From a virus (taxonomy: Duplodnaviria; Caudoviricetes), in the IMG/VR virus record IMGVR_UViG_3300023210_000034, positions 1-62,267 of that record: a stretch of DNA of 62,267 bases; one strand, 5' to 3'. Under the pieces are notes generated by a model. It was not told the origin of the DNA. It worked only from the letters and a program-made list of their open reading frames with translations, and did no database searches. Below, in pieces: positions 1 through 6,487 of the stretch. The position numbers and the translations under genes were made by a program. Positions within the stretch are counted from its first letter, which is position 1. The number at the start of each line of letters is the position of its first letter.

Positions 1-1
1 C

Positions 2-94
2 ACCGGCAACCCGCCCACCACCTACAAACTACATTCCACGGCTAACGGGACATACATTATCAAGGACAGCAATGGGAAAAGCAAAAAAAGATAA
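2..94 (+). CDS. 3' end of a small hypothetical protein (truncated by window start)
   Basis: Open frame TGNPPTTYKLHSTANGTYIIKDSNGKSKKR* overlapping the next ATG, like the other coupled mini-genes. Confidence 0.5.
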   Translation, partial: TGNPPTTYKLHSTANGTYIIKDSNGKSKKR

Positions 95-329
95 GGCAAG
101 ACAAAGACGGAGCCACTATTCTTCGCCGATGCCCATCAGAACGCATTACAAAGGCGTGATGATACCGGACCGTAGACTATTGCCCCGACTTCGGGTAACA
201 ACAGCCGGTCAAATGGCTAGAGATATAGCAGGAATACAGCCAATGACAGGGTTCGTAGCAAGCGCACATACAATAAGAGTACGACATGGGACAATGAGAG
301 TACGACATGGGAAAACATCAAAAAGATAA
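72..329 (+). CDS. MGK-leader mini-protein carrying a major capsid protein (gp23) N-terminal/Gol-region-like fragment
   Basis: VMIPDRRLLPRL...MARDIAGIQPMTGFVASAHTIRVRHG resembles T4 gp23 VMGMVRRAIPNLIAFDICGVQPMNSPTGQVFALRAVYG (recalled); AAGGA upstream. Confidence 0.75.
   Translation: MGKAKKDKARQRRSHYSSPMPIRTHYKGVMIPDRRLLPRLRVTTAGQMARDIAGIQPMTGFVASAHTIRVRHGTMRVRHGKTSKR
270..311 (+). repeat. 21-bp tandem near-perfect duplication
   Basis: ACAATAAGAGTACGACATGGG / ACAATGAGAGTACGACATGGG; the second copy supplies the ATG of the next gene. Confidence 0.9.
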
Positions 330-561
330 AGCAAGACAACGTGGGTTCTACGACGCCTACAAGAGATATTGTGATAACCCACGGGTCTGGACACGTATCA
401 ATGCACTGAAAACGGAATACGCTGGTGGGAATGCGAAGGACGCCGCATTCTTTTATGCGCCGTATGTTCCCTTACAGATGAAAATGTCACGTGGTTCTAA
501 ACAACCGCCAACCACATTCAATACTCGGTACGGAAAGGTGACGATCAATGGGGAAACATAG
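307..561 (+). CDS. MGK-leader mini-protein carrying a major capsid protein (gp23) C-terminal-like fragment
   Basis: EYAGGNAKDAAFFYAPYVPLQM...QPPTTFNTRYG resembles T4 gp23 GYKGPNEMDAGIYYAPYVAL...QPVMGFKTRYG (recalled). Confidence 0.8.
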   Translation: MGKHQKDKARQRGFYDAYKRYCDNPRVWTRINALKTEYAGGNAKDAAFFYAPYVPLQMKMSRGSKQPPTTFNTRYGKVTINGET

Positions 562-796
562 AACAGATAAACGTCGCCAACAAAGAAATCAAAAATGGAA
601 CATGACAGCGAAGAAGACAAGAAAGCCCGGTGGATGGAAGAAATACTTCACGAATTACAAGTCGAATAAATCATACCTCGATCTCAACCGCAGTGGGTAC
701 TCGTGGGGCAACACCAGAAATCTAACAGCTTCCGTGTGGATTAACACATCAGCGACTGTTGATCGTTCGACTAAACCCAAGAAGATATCAAGATGA
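548..796 (+). CDS. MGK-leader basic mini-protein
   Basis: Starts MGKHRTDKRRQQR, paralogous leader; coupled to neighbours. Confidence 0.7.
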   Translation: MGKHRTDKRRQQRNQKWNMTAKKTRKPGGWKKYFTNYKSNKSYLDLNRSGYSWGNTRNLTASVWINTSATVDRSTKPKKISR

Positions 797-1038
797 AACC
801 GGGCAAATATCTAGTGATCGATAAGGACACAACCAGTACCAAAGGACTGATGTATCATTCTTTAAGGCTCACATACCGCAAGGGCAAGTCACCACTTGTC
901 AAGATAACCAAACAAGAACCTAGATTCAGAACCAGATATGATGCACGGAAATTTATTGAGGAACAATCAACACCAGACGTAATGAGGTCCGGAAACCTAA
1001 CTGATCCCCCAAGCTTCAGGATAGTGAAAGATGGGTAA
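793..1038 (+). CDS. Small basic protein, KxGKY-I / RFRxxxDA family member 1
   Basis: MKPGKYLVI...RFRTRYDAR...FRIVK shares motifs with ORFs at 2054-3072. Confidence 0.7.
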   Translation: MKPGKYLVIDKDTTSTKGLMYHSLRLTYRKGKSPLVKITKQEPRFRTRYDARKFIEEQSTPDVMRSGNLTDPPSFRIVKDG

Positions 1039-1201
1039 GCAACTAAAAGATAACGCAAGGCAAGAACGACACATGCTGAAACGTCGTTCTGGACTTGGGC
1101 CAGTGAAATCATTCACCATATTCGGAAGAGGGAGTGGCAAAATCACCTATCACGAATCGGTGAAACATAGAGGAAAACATGTCTACTTTAAACAAACGTA
1201 A
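1031..1201 (+). CDS. MGK-leader basic mini-protein (56 aa, not in ORF track)
   Basis: Hand translation MGKQLKDNARQERHMLKRRSGLGPVKSFTIFGRGSGKITYHESVKHRGKHVYFKQT*. Confidence 0.7.
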   Translation: MGKQLKDNARQERHMLKRRSGLGPVKSFTIFGRGSGKITYHESVKHRGKHVYFKQT

Positions 1202-2057
1202 GCGCGGATACTTAACCTTCGCAATCAATAACGAGAAACAAGATTACGTGAGACTAGCATACGGTCTCGCATTAAGTCTACGGTTGTCTCAACAAGAAAC
1301 TCCATACCTCAGTGTCGTGGTCACCGATCCAGATGACATGCCTGAGAAGTACAAAAAGGTATTCGATAACGTCATCCAAAACCCATGGGGTGATGATGAT
1401 TGGGATCGTGAATGGAAACTCCGTAACGAATGGAAATCCATGCACCTTACACCATACGAGGAAACAATCAAGACAGAAGCAGACATGCTGTACTTCGATG
1501 AAATGGAGCCATTGATCGATCATATCGCAGACCGCCAAGACGTGGCTATCTGTGACAACGTACGAACATTCCAAGACCAAGTGGCAGACATGACATTCTA
1601 TCGCAAAACATTCGTGAACAACAACTTGTATAATGCATACAGTGCGATGTCCTACTTTAAACAAGGCGATGAGTCTTGGAAGTTCTTTGAACTTATCAAA
1701 GAGATCGCAGACAATTGGTCAGAATACAGCTATGAATTCCTCCGCAAATACAGACAGCAAGAGTTCAGCACCGATGTAGCATACGGCCTAGCAGTCAGAC
1801 TACTCGATAAGAAGCGTGAGTACAAGCCATGCATTGAAGGCTTCAACTTCGTTCACATGAAGATGTTAGCACAACTGATGCCAGAACCCAATACCCATTT
1901 TGATGATGATTGGGACTTATGGCTAGACAACAGAATGAATGATAACTGTGAACTGTTCGTAAACAACTATTACATCAGCCGACCATTCCATTATCATGTG
2001 AAGGATTGGTTGACAGATGAGATCATTGAGCAGTACGAGGCAAAGCTAGGGTTATGA
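1179..2057 (+). CDS. Glycosyltransferase-like protein (GT-A/GT8-like)
   Basis: RGYLTFA...DYVRLAYGLALSL, TPYEETIKTEADM (DxD-like), STDVAY, FVHMK, PFHYHVK motifs; GAGG RBS. Confidence 0.65.
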   Translation: MSTLNKRKRGYLTFAINNEKQDYVRLAYGLALSLRLSQQETPYLSVVVTDPDDMPEKYKKVFDNVIQNPWGDDDWDREWKLRNEWKSMHLTPYEETIKTEADMLYFDEMEPLIDHIADRQDVAICDNVRTFQDQVADMTFYRKTFVNNNLYNAYSAMSYFKQGDESWKFFELIKEIADNWSEYSYEFLRKYRQQEFSTDVAYGLAVRLLDKKREYKPCIEGFNFVHMKMLAQLMPEPNTHFDDDWDLWLDNRMNDNCELFVNNYYISRPFHYHVKDWLTDEIIEQYEAKLGL

Positions 2058-2272
2058 GACCCCCGCGATATCACATAGCATTCCTAACGGTTAAAATGAA
2101 AACAGTGGACAGTGATCAGGGAACATGGACATATCCAGTCTTGCACGATTATTATGTCATATCTGGCGCAAGCTTTCGATTCAAACGAGATGCTACTCGG
2201 GCATTGAAGGATTATTCACACGCGGACACGGTATATTTTGTGGTAGATTGTAAAGGGAAGTTGGGATTATGA
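2054..2272 (+). CDS. Small basic protein, RFKRDA family member 2
   Basis: MRPPRYHI...SFRFKRDA...YFVVD; ATGA overlap. Confidence 0.7.
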   Translation: MRPPRYHIAFLTVKMKTVDSDQGTWTYPVLHDYYVISGASFRFKRDATRALKDYSHADTVYFVVDCKGKLGL

Positions 2273-2454
2273 GAAGACCAAAGTGGTGTATAAAGTATCA
2301 CAACAGTGATCCTACTAAATGGTATGTTCTTTCTGCCACGTACAGATTTAAACGTGATGCTGAAATTGATGCCAGAGAAAGACGCCAACATTGTATGATA
2401 CGTAAGGGCCATCACAAGTTTTATGTGGAGAAGGTGCCTTATGCGAAAAGGTAG
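2269..2454 (+). CDS. Small basic protein, RFKRDA family member 3
   Basis: MRRPKWCI...YRFKRDA...FYVEKVPYAKR. Confidence 0.7.
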   Translation: MRRPKWCIKYHNSDPTKWYVLSATYRFKRDAEIDARERRQHCMIRKGHHKFYVEKVPYAKR

Positions 2455-2668
2455 ATACGTGATCAAATTCCGAAGAGCACCAGACCACGGAGAAGACCCA
2501 TCCGAATGGGGTTACTATGGTGGCTACAAAAATGGCCCCGGCTGTTTCCGATTTCGCTTGGCTATCGATGCACGTAACCAATTGGATCACCTGTTAGCAA
2601 GCGTGGGATTTCCGGTATTTGATGGATACGAATTTTATATAGAAAAGATGCCTCATGAAAAAAGGTAA
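2441..2668 (+). CDS. Small basic protein, RFKRDA family member 4
   Basis: MRKGRYVI...FRFRLAIDA...FYIEKMPHEKR; start moved to 2441 by paralog alignment and RBS. Confidence 0.7.
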   Translation: MRKGRYVIKFRRAPDHGEDPSEWGYYGGYKNGPGCFRFRLAIDARNQLDHLLASVGFPVFDGYEFYIEKMPHEKR

Positions 2669-2858
2669 GTACATCATCAAAATCTTGAGCCATCAGATCA
2701 ATCCGCATACCTTTGAGCCTGAACGTGTGTGGATATATCATGGCCACTTTAGATTCAAGAGACCAGCAGAGAATTACGCACGTAACATCAACAGAAGAAA
2801 GTCTCCCCCGCCACACAATGTCGCATACATAGAGAAGTTACCACATGCGAGAAGGTAA
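2655..2858 (+). CDS. Small basic protein, RFKRDA family member 5
   Basis: MKKGKYII...FRFKRPA...YIEKLPHARR. Confidence 0.7.
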   Translation: MKKGKYIIKILSHQINPHTFEPERVWIYHGHFRFKRPAENYARNINRRKSPPPHNVAYIEKLPHARR

Positions 2859-3072
2859 GTACATCATCAGATATCACGATAAGCGGCCCGCCCGGAAGCC
2901 AGCAGACCCCACGTGGGGAATAGTATCTTCGCAGAATGGCCGACCCTATACTTACAAAGTTAAGTCTTTTCGGTTCAAGCGCGAAGCACAAGACTATATA
3001 CAAGAGAAATATAATATGTACACACAGGCCAATGAAATCCATTTCTATATTGTAAGGCACAAAAATGTTTGA
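2845..3072 (+). CDS. Small basic protein, RFKRDA family member 6
   Basis: MREGKYII...FRFKREA...FYIVRHK. Confidence 0.7.
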   Translation: MREGKYIIRYHDKRPARKPADPTWGIVSSQNGRPYTYKVKSFRFKREAQDYIQEKYNMYTQANEIHFYIVRHKNV

Positions 3073-3634
3073 CGAAGACTACACTTTTAGGGTATACTAT
3101 AACCAAGTGGGCGATATACATGCATGCTCATCTGAATCCAAACCAGATGAAAGCCTGAATGATATCCCATTTTTAGAAACAACGGAGTACGAATACAGGG
3201 ACGTTATCGCAGCACAACAAAATTACGGCGTAATCTCAATCAATGATGTGCCAACACTAGTTGCGGCAACCACCGACGAATACAAAGCATTCAGAAGGAA
3301 GTTCGATAAACAAAACATAACACTGATACCTGTGATCGACAAACAACGAGAACACTACGTGGTGAAGTTCACATACATGAAGAACCGCAACAAAGTACTC
3401 GTTGAGGGCATGGACGATTTCTACAAACGTGCAGGTAATAGAGATGCAGTCGTATGGGTGTTCGTTGTCCCAAGGAACTATATCTATGAGCCACCATTAC
3501 TCACATTGAAATGGATCGGCGGCGATGTAGTCATGAATAAAGAGTTATACGAGATTCCAGCAGGAGTCAATCAGGAGATCACATTGATCAGTAACATAGA
3601 TAAACATCTAACGTCGTTCGAGGTAAGGAAATGA
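3065..3634 (+). CDS. Hypothetical protein coupled to glycosyltransferase
   Basis: 189-aa ORF overlapping both neighbours, typical codon usage. Confidence 0.7.
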   Translation: MFDEDYTFRVYYNQVGDIHACSSESKPDESLNDIPFLETTEYEYRDVIAAQQNYGVISINDVPTLVAATTDEYKAFRRKFDKQNITLIPVIDKQREHYVVKFTYMKNRNKVLVEGMDDFYKRAGNRDAVVWVFVVPRNYIYEPPLLTLKWIGGDVVMNKELYEIPAGVNQEITLISNIDKHLTSFEVRK

Positions 3635-4593
3635 AGCAAGAGTACAATATATCGGACTTTTCTGTTGTGTACATCTCATACGATGAACCAAACTGTGAGA
3701 AACATTGGGCCGATCTCCTAGAGAAAAACCCAGCAGCTAAACGTGTCCACCATGTCAAAGGATTCGACGCAGCCCATAGAGCAGCAGGGGAAGCAGGAAC
3801 AACCGACCGTATCATCACAGTAGACGCAGACAACATCATCCATCCAGAGTTCATGCTACAAAAGGTAATGATCGATGATGAACTACATCACGATTACGTG
3901 TACAGTTGGAAAGGTCTGAACATGGTCAATGGTCTATCGTATGGCAACGGTGGACTGAAACTATGGCCACGCGATGAACTCCTGAACATGGCATCACATG
4001 AACTGGCCGAAGATGGTAACGGCGTGGACTTCTGTTGGATGCCCACGTACGTACAAATGGCAAGCATATGGTCAGATGTATACGTGAATGGCTCACCCTT
4101 CCAAGCATTCCGCGCAGGGTATCGCGAAGGCGTGAAGATGAGTCTACACAATGGCGATAAGGTTGACAAGTGGAAGTTCTATGAAAAGAATGCAAGAGCG
4201 AACCTCGAACGATTAAGCATCTGGTGCTCAGTGGGACGAGATATCCTACACGGTAACTACGCTATGATTGGAGCAAGGATGGGTGCCGTGAAAGCATTCG
4301 ATCCAGAGTTCGAACCATCAAGCGTAGCTGAGTTCGATTACTTCGACACAGTATGGGACCAGCATAGAGCTATCTTCAATGACCCCCACACACTCAAGAG
4401 ATTCATGCTCAGACTTAATGAAGAGATCAATGATCTAATGCAGCTACGTGTCGCTGAACTCGATGAACAACAATCAGCGTGGTTCAAGTCAGTACACTTC
4501 GACAACAAGGCAAAGTACAGCATCATGGTAACAGAACAAGAAGCAGCAGGATTGGAACTCAAGAGAATGTTCGAGGACAGTACAGTAATATGA
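3631..4593 (+). CDS. GT-A fold glycosyltransferase-like protein (paralog 1)
   Basis: VYISYDEPN, VKGFDAAH, VDAD (DxD), YGNGGLK, PFQAFRAGYRE; paralogous to 14362 and 15312. Confidence 0.7.
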   Translation: MKQEYNISDFSVVYISYDEPNCEKHWADLLEKNPAAKRVHHVKGFDAAHRAAGEAGTTDRIITVDADNIIHPEFMLQKVMIDDELHHDYVYSWKGLNMVNGLSYGNGGLKLWPRDELLNMASHELAEDGNGVDFCWMPTYVQMASIWSDVYVNGSPFQAFRAGYREGVKMSLHNGDKVDKWKFYEKNARANLERLSIWCSVGRDILHGNYAMIGARMGAVKAFDPEFEPSSVAEFDYFDTVWDQHRAIFNDPHTLKRFMLRLNEEINDLMQLRVAELDEQQSAWFKSVHFDNKAKYSIMVTEQEAAGLELKRMFEDSTVI

Positions 4594-4787: not shown

Positions 4788-5037
4788 AAAAACAAAAGTT
4801 GAATATTTTAGCGACGATTCCCTGTTCATGATAACGCACACAAAGAACGGCAAACGTCACAGTATCAAAGGCCCAGCGCAGTCCGAATGGTGGCGAACGG
4901 GGCAAATGGCAACTCGTTCATATTATGTCAATGATAGGTTACATAGGGTAGATGGCCCAGCATATATTCAGTGGCATCAAGATGGAACACTATGGCATGA
5001 AGACTATTATTTGAATGGTGAGAAACAAAATGACTGA
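4780..5037 (+). CDS. MORN-variant/YwqK-like repeat protein
   Basis: KRHSIKGPA and RLHRVDGPA...YYLNG repeats. Confidence 0.75.
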   Translation: MTEKTKVEYFSDDSLFMITHTKNGKRHSIKGPAQSEWWRTGQMATRSYYVNDRLHRVDGPAYIQWHQDGTLWHEDYYLNGEKQND

Positions 5038-6487
5038 AAAATCACAGAACCAATTGAACATCGAGAACATGCAAACACGCATGGACAAGGTAGAACAATC
5101 ATCATGTACTATGTGCACGGCTAAATGGTTGCAAACTACCCTGTATCTTATGAACGGAATGAACCACTCATGTCACCATCCAGTGGCACACAAAATTCCA
5201 CCAGAAGAACTCAAGGATAATCCAACCGCACTACACAACACAAAGTTCAAGAAAGAACAACGACAGCTAATGCTCGACGGTGAACGACCACCAGAATGCG
5301 AATACTGCTGGAACATCGAAGACCTAAAGGGAGACCATATCAGTGATCGTACCTATAAGTCAACCGATGAACAATGGAGCATGCCATACCTCGATAAGAT
5401 CATGGAAGCTAAAGCAACAGGTAACATCAACCCAAGCTATCTTGAAGTCGCATTCGAAAACACATGTAACTTCAAATGTGCGTACTGCTCACCAGAAGTG
5501 TCATCCAAATGGATGGAAGAAATAAAACAACATGGTCCATACACAACCTCGTGGTTGACAGGGAGCCTGACTTGGTTACAAGACTCAGGAAGAATGCCAC
5601 TACCAAACCGCGAAGACAATGTGTACGTGGATGCCTTTTGGGAATGGTGGCCCGACCTATACCAAGACCTGAACACATTCCGTATCACTGGTGGCGAACC
5701 ACTACTAAGCAAAAACACATGGAAGGTGCTTGAGTACATAAAAGAGAACCCACGTGAAGACTTCAATCTTGCCATCAATACCAACCTTGATGTTCCCGAA
5801 GAGTTCATTAATAAACTGATCCAGTATCATAACGATATCGCACCACATATCAATAGCTTCGAAATATATACATCATGTGAAGCCAAGGGCGATGCCGCTG
5901 AGTATATCCGCTATGGTATGGACTACACTCGATTCATGAAGAACGTTCATCGGGTACTAGCGAACACCGAAGCACGTGTGAACTTCATGATAACCTTCAA
6001 TGTGTTGAGCCTAGGCACCTTCCAAGACTTCTTGAAAGATATCTGGAACCTTAGATCATACTACAACGAATCAGACGCAATGAACCGTATCCCAATGATG
6101 ATCTCATATCTGCGCTGGCCACCGTTCCTGAACGCACAACTAGCAACAGATTACATAAAAGATATCTTCATACACCACATCAATGAATTCATTGATGCTC
6201 ATATGCGTGACACAAGCCCAACTGATAAAGCCAGATTCTATCTGGAAGAAAAAGATCAGATCGATAGGCTATGTGAATACCTCAGAGATCGTCCAGAGAC
6301 AAATGCACGAGATCAAACCGATCTAGTCACATTCGTGAAAGAATACGACAAACGTAGAGGAACTGATTTCGCAACAACGTTTCCCGAACACGATAAACTA
6401 ATACAGTGGTCATACCCACAACAAGGATACCACGATAATGATTGGGATCAGGGAGATGGAGATATAGCACATGTCACACCAATTTAG
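5030..6487 (+). CDS. Radical SAM protein with N-terminal Cys-rich (twitch-like) domain
   Basis: CNFKCAYC (CxxxCxxC), ITGGEPLL, NTN; N-terminal C..KW...HSCHH...ECEYCW. Confidence 0.9.
   Translation: MTEKSQNQLNIENMQTRMDKVEQSSCTMCTAKWLQTTLYLMNGMNHSCHHPVAHKIPPEELKDNPTALHNTKFKKEQRQLMLDGERPPECEYCWNIEDLKGDHISDRTYKSTDEQWSMPYLDKIMEAKATGNINPSYLEVAFENTCNFKCAYCSPEVSSKWMEEIKQHGPYTTSWLTGSLTWLQDSGRMPLPNREDNVYVDAFWEWWPDLYQDLNTFRITGGEPLLSKNTWKVLEYIKENPREDFNLAINTNLDVPEEFINKLIQYHNDIAPHINSFEIYTSCEAKGDAAEYIRYGMDYTRFMKNVHRVLANTEARVNFMITFNVLSLGTFQDFLKDIWNLRSYYNESDAMNRIPMMISYLRWPPFLNAQLATDYIKDIFIHHINEFIDAHMRDTSPTDKARFYLEEKDQIDRLCEYLRDRPETNARDQTDLVTFVKEYDKRRGTDFATTFPEHDKLIQWSYPQQGYHDNDWDQGDGDIAHVTPI

Follow-up and report, generated by a model that had tools for sequence, protein, structure and literature searches.

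A tandem array of leader-tagged mini-genes with putative capsid-derived cargo in an uncultured marine jumbo phage

The window analysed here is the whole 62,267 nucleotides (nt) of an IMG/VR virus record, IMGVR_UViG_3300023210_000034, with an estimated completeness of 17%. At its 5' end lies a cluster of small, overlapping genes that begin with a common Lys/Arg-rich leader, and two of these genes resemble, over part of their length, the major capsid protein (MCP; gp23 in T4) of T4-type phages. The explanation that we prefer, with a probability of roughly 0.55, is that the cluster is a recombination-driven, lineage-specific tandem array of tagged accessory mini-proteins, in which scavenged pieces of capsid genes serve as cargo. 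In this array the tag is maintained as a peptide, the cargos are interchangeable, with no purifying selection detectable on them between strains, and the leader repeats of 33-40 nt function as crossover sites through which whole units are added or removed. The two recognisable cargos are old, heavily diverged gp23-type pieces, one of the jumbo phage type and the other with a leaning towards classical T4.

The leader array and its host lineage

Four open reading frames (ORFs) of the window have a 13-residue leader in common, after which the cargo differs: ORF 72 (72..329; 85 amino acids, aa; leader 72-110), ORF 307 (307..561; 84 aa; leader 307-345), ORF 548 (548..796; 82 aa; isoelectric point, pI, 11.4) and ORF 1031 (1031..1201; 56 aa), all on the + strand. 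Their leader starts are MGKAKKDKARQRR, MGKHQKDKARQRG, MGKHRTDKRRQQR and MGKQLKDNARQER, respectively. The cargos of ORF 548 and ORF 1031 are orphans, and the latter is the last leader unit. Overlaps between neighbours measure 8-23 nt; the start of each unit overlaps the stop of the preceding one and is preceded by a purine-rich stretch resembling a Shine-Dalgarno sequence. A preliminary description of this DNA had proposed four coupled ORFs with a shared leader, and this is borne out by the ORF coordinates and by a six-frame scan of the entire 62,267 nt, in which the leader occurs four times, every copy being inside this cluster.

The array extends beyond the window. Its first 800 nt are shared with a sister contig, G001 (50,098 nt; loci L003-L010), which is 96-100% identical to the window over this part and reaches 49 kb further upstream. 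It adds two upstream leader units, U1 (L003:4695-4910) and U2, bringing the array to at least six units of 56-85 codons each. U2 is complete at L003:4841-5023, with the leader MGKQQKDKARRKR...; in the window only its 3' end is present (2..94, + strand), the start being beyond the window's end. This tail, together with the two upstream units in the sister contig, indicates that the array is cut by the 5' end of the window. U1 holds a short in-frame tandem repeat (EQERK repeated; L003:4780-4835), which overlaps the frame leading into U2. Since no promoter-like or terminator-like site was found on the + strand of window positions 1-1200, the array is apparently read through from upstream genes.

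The leader consensus is M-G-K-x-x-K-D-K-A-R-Q-R-R. Residues G2, K3, D7 and R10 are invariant in the six units, even though the Gly is encoded by three different codons and Arg10 by AGA, AGG and CGC. The ratio of non-synonymous to synonymous divergence (pN/pS) is 0.19 at the eight conserved positions (pS 0.73) and 0.83 at the variable ones, values that derive from non-independent pairs and only 12 codons, and the synonymous sites of the leader are near saturation. Even so, this pattern suggests an old, translated peptide motif rather than a recent homogenisation of the DNA: peptide-level purifying selection combined with near-saturated synonymous sites would make the units themselves old and translated. 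The mini-proteins are very basic, with pI values of 9.6-12.

Several searches suggest that the array is known only from this lineage. Among 5.8 billion proteins it was represented by one 96%-identical cluster. In IMG/VR the strict leader pattern was found in the sister contig only; a looser pattern gave multiple matches in the sister contig only, and single matches at 44 other loci, 36 of which have an MGK start and all of these encode unrelated proteins. Protein scans with ORF 307 and ORF 1179 and one metagenome scan also returned nothing beyond the sister contig.

The lineage's own capsid gene is on the sister contig. It encodes a protein of 394 aa (PF07068, E 1.9e-97) and is located about 47 kb upstream of the leader array, a distance that qualifies the earlier statement that the mini-genes are far from any head module. 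This MCP falls in a very large marine clade (8,000 relatives scored). Among the 120 matches listed, identities range from 79 to 100% on contigs of up to 308 kb, and the nearest named relatives are the jumbo myoviruses Vibrio phage 2.275.O (349 kb, 66%) and Escherichia phage BF17 (383 kb, 61%). At the DNA level, the only match of the window to a named phage is a weak one, to the Ralstonia jumbo phage RsoM2USA (66% identity over 620 nt). The sequencing runs in which the array occurs, 13 DNA runs from 10 studies, are seawater or marine metagenomes; no RNA run is among the 13, which is not evidence either way. The phage that carries the array is a jumbo myovirus of marine origin, so far uncultured, whose capsid is of the T4 type.

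Capsid-like cargos and their provenance

The similarity to capsid proteins is most pronounced for ORF 307. Its aa 18-81 (358..549, + strand) correspond to a C-terminal segment of the capsid protein: the match to the Pfam family Gp23 (PF07068) reaches 30.2 bits, above the cut-off of 24.4 (E 4e-7, profile positions 302-350 of 376), and that to the major head protein family PHROG 138 has an E-value of 8e-7. A tblastn search found 847 phage records, with one place each, all of them full-length capsid genes, the best match being 50% identical over 48 aa. The segment is 39% identical to residues 319-369 of the MCP of its own lineage and 43-56% identical to the MCP of Vibrio phage D509, it retains the motifs DAAxFYxPYxPL and FxTRYG, and every gap with respect to real capsid proteins is in frame.

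For ORF 72 the relationship is more distant. With PF07068 it scores 17 bits, under the cut-off (E 0.004, profile 7-46), and a search of phage records gave a single match, to the capsid gene of Sinorhizobium phage Phosso (E 9e-3). However, BLASTP aligns aa 33-73 (168..290, + strand) with residues 58-98 of the lineage's own MCP at 39% identity (pairwise E 1e-8), and on a jumbo-clade profile the score is 25 bits, with none of 300 shuffled sequences performing as well. The same residues align with the Gol-containing segment of T2 gp23, with 9 of 40 positions identical. Gol activates the Lit protease by way of EF-Tu, binding to its domains II and III. According to a review (PMC3014915), no part of gp23 is better conserved than the Gol region, of which 29 residues suffice for activation of Lit, with 13 functionally important residues within a 20-residue core. 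The ORF 72 segment is homologous to the Gol-containing segment of T4 gp23, but differs from T4 Gol in being of the jumbo-clade type, in its low identity to T2 and in belonging to a predicted separate protein of 85 aa. Moreover, it has lost conserved residues: [RK]R has become RV, the Pro of 'mPtvIA' has become Ala and the Pro of 'GP' has become Phe. The lost Arg and two Pro are conserved in most of 16 family members, one of the Pro in all 16.

As coverage of PF07068 is limited to positions 7-46 and 302-350 of 376, far from the near-full-length coverage expected of a capsid subunit, the cargos of ORF 72 and ORF 307 are, as judged by profile and pairwise comparison, derived capsid fragments and not capsid proteins. 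Thus, two of the capsid matches proposed in the preliminary description stand, that of ORF 307 on the Pfam score and that of ORF 72 on the own MCP and the clade profile, while the weak match proposed for ORF 548 does not. ORF 548 was rejected as a capsid fragment by BLASTP (E>20), by a search of 1.84 billion representative sequences, among which no relative was found, and by the profile tests: Pfam and PHROG gave no match, and on the panel profile it scores -2.1 bits, with 209 of 300 shuffles as good. The sole hint, among 21 tests, is a score of 1.1 bits against the jumbo profile, which 6 of 300 shuffles equalled or exceeded and which falls in another part of the capsid protein. BLASTP and profile tests gave no capsid signal for ORF 1031, U1, U2 or ORF 793, and four of the six leader units are without capsid material. 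Searches of known RNA families, NCBIfam and PADLOC, and of the ESM Atlas for ORF 548, yielded nothing usable. A predicted complex of ORF 72 aa 20-80 with Escherichia coli EF-Tu scored 0.00, which, having been obtained without controls, is not evidence either way.

Neither fragment is a recent self-copy, given a protein identity of about 39% to the own MCP and the failure of blastn to detect a DNA match to the own gene. A recent copy of that gene was rejected as a source on the same grounds. The affinities of the fragments were assessed with profiles made from five jumbo-clade and eleven other Gp23-family proteins, both segments of each being scored leave-one-out. For all 16 real proteins the two segments favour the same profile; the five jumbo proteins lie at +36 to +61 bits and the eleven others are all negative, with T2 gp24 near zero. 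The fragments, in contrast, disagree with each other: ORF 72 scores +15.0 bits (jumbo) and ORF 307 -13.9 bits (classical). Because the classical profile is broader and more forgiving to diverged sequences, a permutation null was added, in which the matches to a donor from the rival clade were kept fixed and the remainder was shuffled (300 permutations per donor). The real difference was reached by 0 of 300 permutations of ORF 72 with each of four classical donors, and by 9, 6, 5 and 0 of 300 permutations of ORF 307 with four jumbo donors, the null means being -0.5 to -4.8. Diagnostic columns are few in ORF 307: of five, one is jumbo, two are classical and two are neither.

On the basis of these profile scores, the ORF 72 fragment is clearly of the jumbo-clade type, and there is moderate support for ORF 307 leaning to the classical T4 type. 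Such opposite affinities make two donors seem more likely than one, the alternative being an unsampled mosaic donor. A single decayed copy of a capsid gene as the source of both is disfavoured by the same opposition, with the bias of the classical profile borne in mind, and this agrees with the earlier view that the fragments do not represent simple decay of one capsid gene. No second full-length Gp23-family gene, which could be a gp24-like vertex paralogue acting as donor, was present in five genomes of 344-469 kb, and no close full-length donor for ORF 307 emerged from a search for longer relatives.

Both fragments are heavily diverged, with scores of 25.8 and 33.2 bits as compared to 32-99 bits for real segments (each on its own group's leave-one-out profile, gp24 excepted). 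When the corresponding segments of the own MCP were allowed to decay to the observed identity by neutral point substitution, 44% of the N-terminal and 12% of the C-terminal ones remained free of stops, before indels; the joint survival would be about 0.05 (0.44 x 0.12), again without indels. Assuming canonical clade donors, this low survival makes the open frames mild support for past selection on openness.

Outside the lineage, a comparable situation was found in the Sinorhizobium jumbo phage Phosso (PV764938.1; 469 kb), which has two stand-alone capsid fragments in small ORFs (L077:2236-2856 and L078:2424-2804). The match to the Gol segment (37.5 bits) is in an unannotated frame upstream of coding sequence (CDS) 276, and that to the C-terminal segment (23.8 bits) is at the N-terminus of CDS 170, which is 47% identical to ORF 307 over 32 aa. 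As the N-terminal piece occupies a 265-nt unannotated stretch upstream of CDS 276, this gene may start earlier than annotated. A distance of 68 kb separates the two fragments, which are encoded on opposite strands and remote from Phosso's capsid gene, and no relatives of the ORFs that contain them were found. Like the array cargos, they represent the same two gp23 segments in small hypothetical ORFs remote from the capsid gene; unlike these, they are at the N-terminus of their ORFs without a shared leader and are followed by 60-130 further residues. In a PF07068 search, short isolated capsid fragments were detected in 2 of 16 lineages, namely in 2 of the 6 whose genomes measure about 344-469 kb and in none of the 10 whose genomes measure 135-245 kb. 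The additional matches in these smaller genomes are gp24-type genes. Like the fragments, the latter add a further Gp23-family sequence to a genome that already has one, but they are near full length (profile 2-376 in T2, 2-43 and 126-366 in KVP40, 110-355 in the Campylobacter phage), whereas the fragments cover 40-50 of 376 positions. It should be kept in mind that gp23 is best conserved in just these two segments, so that detection bias can explain why the same two recur.

A gene for a SegE-type homing endonuclease with GIY-YIG and NUMOD3 domains is situated directly downstream of the own capsid gene (L004:86-913, - strand; G001:C1:86-913). Comparable arrangements exist in Vibrio phage D509, with an annotated homing endonuclease after the capsid gene, and in Campylobacter phage NCTC12673, with Hef74 in this position. 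Homing endonucleases beside capsid genes are a possible, candidate source of recombinogenic capsid-gene ends.

Strain variation and neighbouring genes

The comparison with the sister contig reveals the gain or loss of an entire unit. Window positions 1-104 match G001 at 100% and positions 307-800 at 96.6%, and both matches take in the 33-nt leader. G001 joins the 5' part of the ORF 72 leader to the body of ORF 307, and a 235-nt unit (96..330, + strand), consisting of the ORF 72 cargo, which is Gol-like, and the 5' part of the ORF 307 leader, is missing from this short haplotype. The joint connects position 95 to 331, skipping 235 nt, and 9 nt (GCAAGACAA) fit either side. A 21-nt tandem duplication (275..316, + strand) lies where the capsid fragment meets the leader that follows; its first copy holds a vestigial ATGGGA start.

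In order to survey the population, contigs of four seawater runs from four studies (X1-X4) were placed on window positions 1-3200. The short-form joint 95->331 is present in the main contigs of three of the four (X2, X3 and X4), and in a 51-nt contig of X1 (depth 19.7) leader letters of the ORF 72 type immediately precede positions 320-360. The long form occurs in X1 as a separate 286-nt contig (depth 7.4 versus about 25) and in X2 as a separate 264-nt contig (depth 2.7 versus 12.1), both with 0 differences from the window; it was not seen in the contigs of X3 or X4. Short and long forms coexist in two runs, and from rough contig depths the short form looks commoner. In addition, an ORF 72-type leader precedes the ORF 307 protein on 13 of the 15 contigs that encode it, although these contigs are non-independent samples and the junction itself is read only in G001. 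On those 15 contigs ORF 307 occurs in four variants, all open. The earlier claim that the fragments are kept as intact genes is thus sustained for ORF 307, but not for the cargo of ORF 72, which the sister contig lacks, as do the main contigs of three of the four runs.

Other differences between strains are concentrated in a variable patch (383..694, + strand) of substitutions and indels. The long contigs of X1 and X2 differ from the window by 11 substitutions and two one-base indels, all of them in this patch, and the long contigs of X3 have 10 substitutions there. Positions 695-3200 are identical in the long contigs of X1-X3, and one 151-nt X3 contig with a depth of 2 differs around 1876-1938. 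Such clustering has a probability of about 1e-5 for 7 events. The distribution of differences identifies 383-694 as a putative recombination patch with the leader as its left border. Two polymorphic residues of ORF 307 (R/Q at 26 and T/N at 69) occur in all four combinations in the four variants (P0001-P0004), which implies recombination or recurrent mutation within 130 nt. The cargo differences in the patch amount to 3 synonymous and 11 non-synonymous ones, a pN/pS of 1.0, for two haplotypes. With regard to codon usage, ORF 307 (0.22) is within the range of genes, while ORF 72 is atypical (-0.04; 80-codon windows of true genes have a mean of 0.32 and a minimum of -0.002).

Several neighbouring genes also display a repetitive organization. 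ORF 793 (793..1038, + strand; 81 aa) sits inside the leader array without having the leader itself; a weak similarity (16-25% identity) connects it to a second tandem family, located at 2054-3072 and made up of five small basic ORFs with DNA repeats at the unit junctions. The consensus of this family is M-R-x-G-K-Y-x-I-K-Y ... FRFKRDA ... FYIEK-x-PH-x-x-R, and the members tested had no Pfam or PHROG match. The end of ORF 1031 overlaps the start of a 292-aa gene at 1179. The two genes that flank the array (window 1179-2057 and L003:3893-4702) are paralogous but far diverged (22% identical over 191 aa, pairwise E 7e-4), neither with a family assignment. The array is located just downstream of tail-fibre-like genes; upstream, L003:605-2518 encodes a 637-aa tail-fibre-like protein with a near-cut-off match to a Peptidase_G2/intramolecular-chaperone domain (24.1 versus 25 bits). 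Among the downstream genes (window 3631-4593 and 5015-6487) are a weak glycosyltransferase-like match and a radical SAM protein.

Competing explanations and significance

As a combination of a short shared leader with diverse cargo, the array has its closest functional precedent, by analogy, in the capsid targeting sequence of T-even phages. T-even internal proteins have a shared short N-terminal leader, are encoded in a locus that is hypervariable among closely related phages and in some cases counter host defences (PMC3012670); IPI, IPII, IPIII and Alt are unrelated small proteins with only this leader in common, as are the array proteins. The array leader is, however, Lys/Arg-rich, a T4-type [LI]xE site follows it in only one of the six units, and the units are arranged in tandem and translationally coupled. 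Hence, as far as sequence can tell, a shared leader is present, while membership in a capsid-targeting family fails on the prohead-protease site. It could nevertheless be imagined that the leader acts as a virion-delivery tag, loading basic proteins into the head for injection, some of them with an anti-defence role. The high pI of the proteins and the position of the array just downstream of tail-fibre-like genes would suit this, but basicity is partly compositional, some 47 kb separate the array from the head genes, and the cleavage site is rare in the leader units even though the own MCP has four such sites, three of them in the first 42 residues. Virion delivery seems unlikely; being a statement about tag function, it is compatible with the preferred explanation.

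A second parallel is offered by the PeSL regulatory cassettes of T4-type hyperplastic regions, in which short repeats flanking small non-essential ORFs bring about their insertion, deletion and replacement between near-identical phages (PMC2839356). The array resembles these cassettes in that recombination at repeat borders causes indels of small ORFs, here the 235-nt unit. In the PeSL the repeat is non-coding, a sigma-70-like promoter with a stem-loop terminator, whereas in the array it is a coding leader, selected as a peptide and without promoter- or terminator-like signal. By analogy, the array would fit among the fast-turnover accessory genes of T4-type hyperplastic regions. One may go further and regard it as non-functional recombination debris in such a region, open by chance and recent origin, with the leader as the footprint of unequal crossover. 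This would be in line with the presence/absence polymorphism of the 235-nt unit, the cargo pN/pS of about 1, the atypical codon usage of ORF 72 and the lack of homologues outside the lineage, whether among 5.8 billion proteins, in IMG/VR and the metagenome scans or, for ORF 548, among 1.84 billion representatives. The homing endonucleases beside the capsid genes of the own lineage and of two panel phages would furnish plausible recombinogenic ends. Yet purifying selection acts on the leader as a peptide, its synonymous sites are close to saturation, each observed copy of a unit has an open frame and a coupled start, the gaps of ORF 307 are all in frame, and the joint stop-free survival under neutral decay would be only about 0.05 even without indels. 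We consider such debris unlikely.

Capsid proteins trigger several bacterial immune systems, and free copies of the most conserved capsid segments would, if expressed, be an obvious candidate for a mimic or decoy. ORF 72 and ORF 307 could present the most conserved capsid epitopes, either as a decoy for Lit, through Gol and EF-Tu, or for CapRel-type sensors, or as a poison for the assembly of co-infecting T4-like phages. Indeed, capture has fallen on precisely those segments of gp23 that are best conserved, their frames remain open despite heavy divergence, the foreign (classical T4) leaning of ORF 307 is what would be expected of a weapon against competitors, and the predominance of non-synonymous strain differences is also compatible with an arms race. 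With the stand-alone copies of the same two segments in Phosso, the idea may be extended: jumbo phages would repeatedly excise both of the most conserved capsid epitopes and produce them as free mini-proteins, here from a tagged cassette array, and these would mimic the capsid so as to weaken capsid-sensing immunity or disrupt capsid assembly in competing T4-like phages. Both forms of the idea appear improbable. The preliminary description, which had proposed a decoy or dominant-negative function, had named neutrally evolving cargo as an outcome that would speak against it, and this is what is provisionally observed, with 3 against 11 differences and a pN/pS equal to the neutral expectation in two haplotypes. 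Furthermore, the Gol-like unit is absent from the commoner haplotype, ORF 72 has few residues in common with T2 gp23 and has lost the conserved Arg and two Pro, capsid material is absent from most leader units, and detection bias would lead one to expect the same two segments to recur, since just the most conserved regions remain recognisable. No description of a capsid-fragment decoy mechanism was found in the open-access papers and bioRxiv texts, as far as these were covered. Thus, the proposed function is unsupported, and it is weakened by the neutral-looking cargo, the dispensability of a unit and the lost residues, on the thin data of two haplotypes; slightly in its favour are the recurrence in Phosso and the foreign leaning of ORF 307.

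A number of observations also weigh against the tagged accessory array that we prefer. All three frames of the A-rich stretch (37% A) give pI values of 9.7-11.2, which means that the basicity of the mini-proteins is partly compositional, and the function ascribed to the tag is a guess. Codon usage is weak or atypical in ORF 72, ORF 548 and ORF 1031, where another frame outscores the coding one, and the cargo pN/pS is based on 14 differences between two haplotypes. Moreover, two of six cargos being recognisable as derived from capsid genes exceeds what random scavenging from a genome of about 350 kb would give, and the same two segments also stand alone in Phosso; together, the capsid excess and this recurrence hint that capsid pieces may be selected for. 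In the explanation of a tagged accessory array, both are treated as a consequence of detection bias or of a recombination hotspot.

With these reservations, the units of the tagged array would be fast-turnover accessory proteins. The tag would supply a constant function, for example a binding or targeting role directed at nucleic acid or the interior of the virion, and the cargo would be expendable raw material gained by illegitimate recombination. The capsid pieces would then be scavenged and possibly exapted material, and not a tuned capsid mimic.

The use of a coding repeat, a start codon and 12 further codons kept as a peptide, as a recombination handle for the gain and loss of mini-genes would be a new twist, and both alleles of the array are seen side by side in seawater populations. 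It appears that pieces of an essential structural gene can be recycled into accessory ORFs of jumbo phages, in two unrelated lineages.

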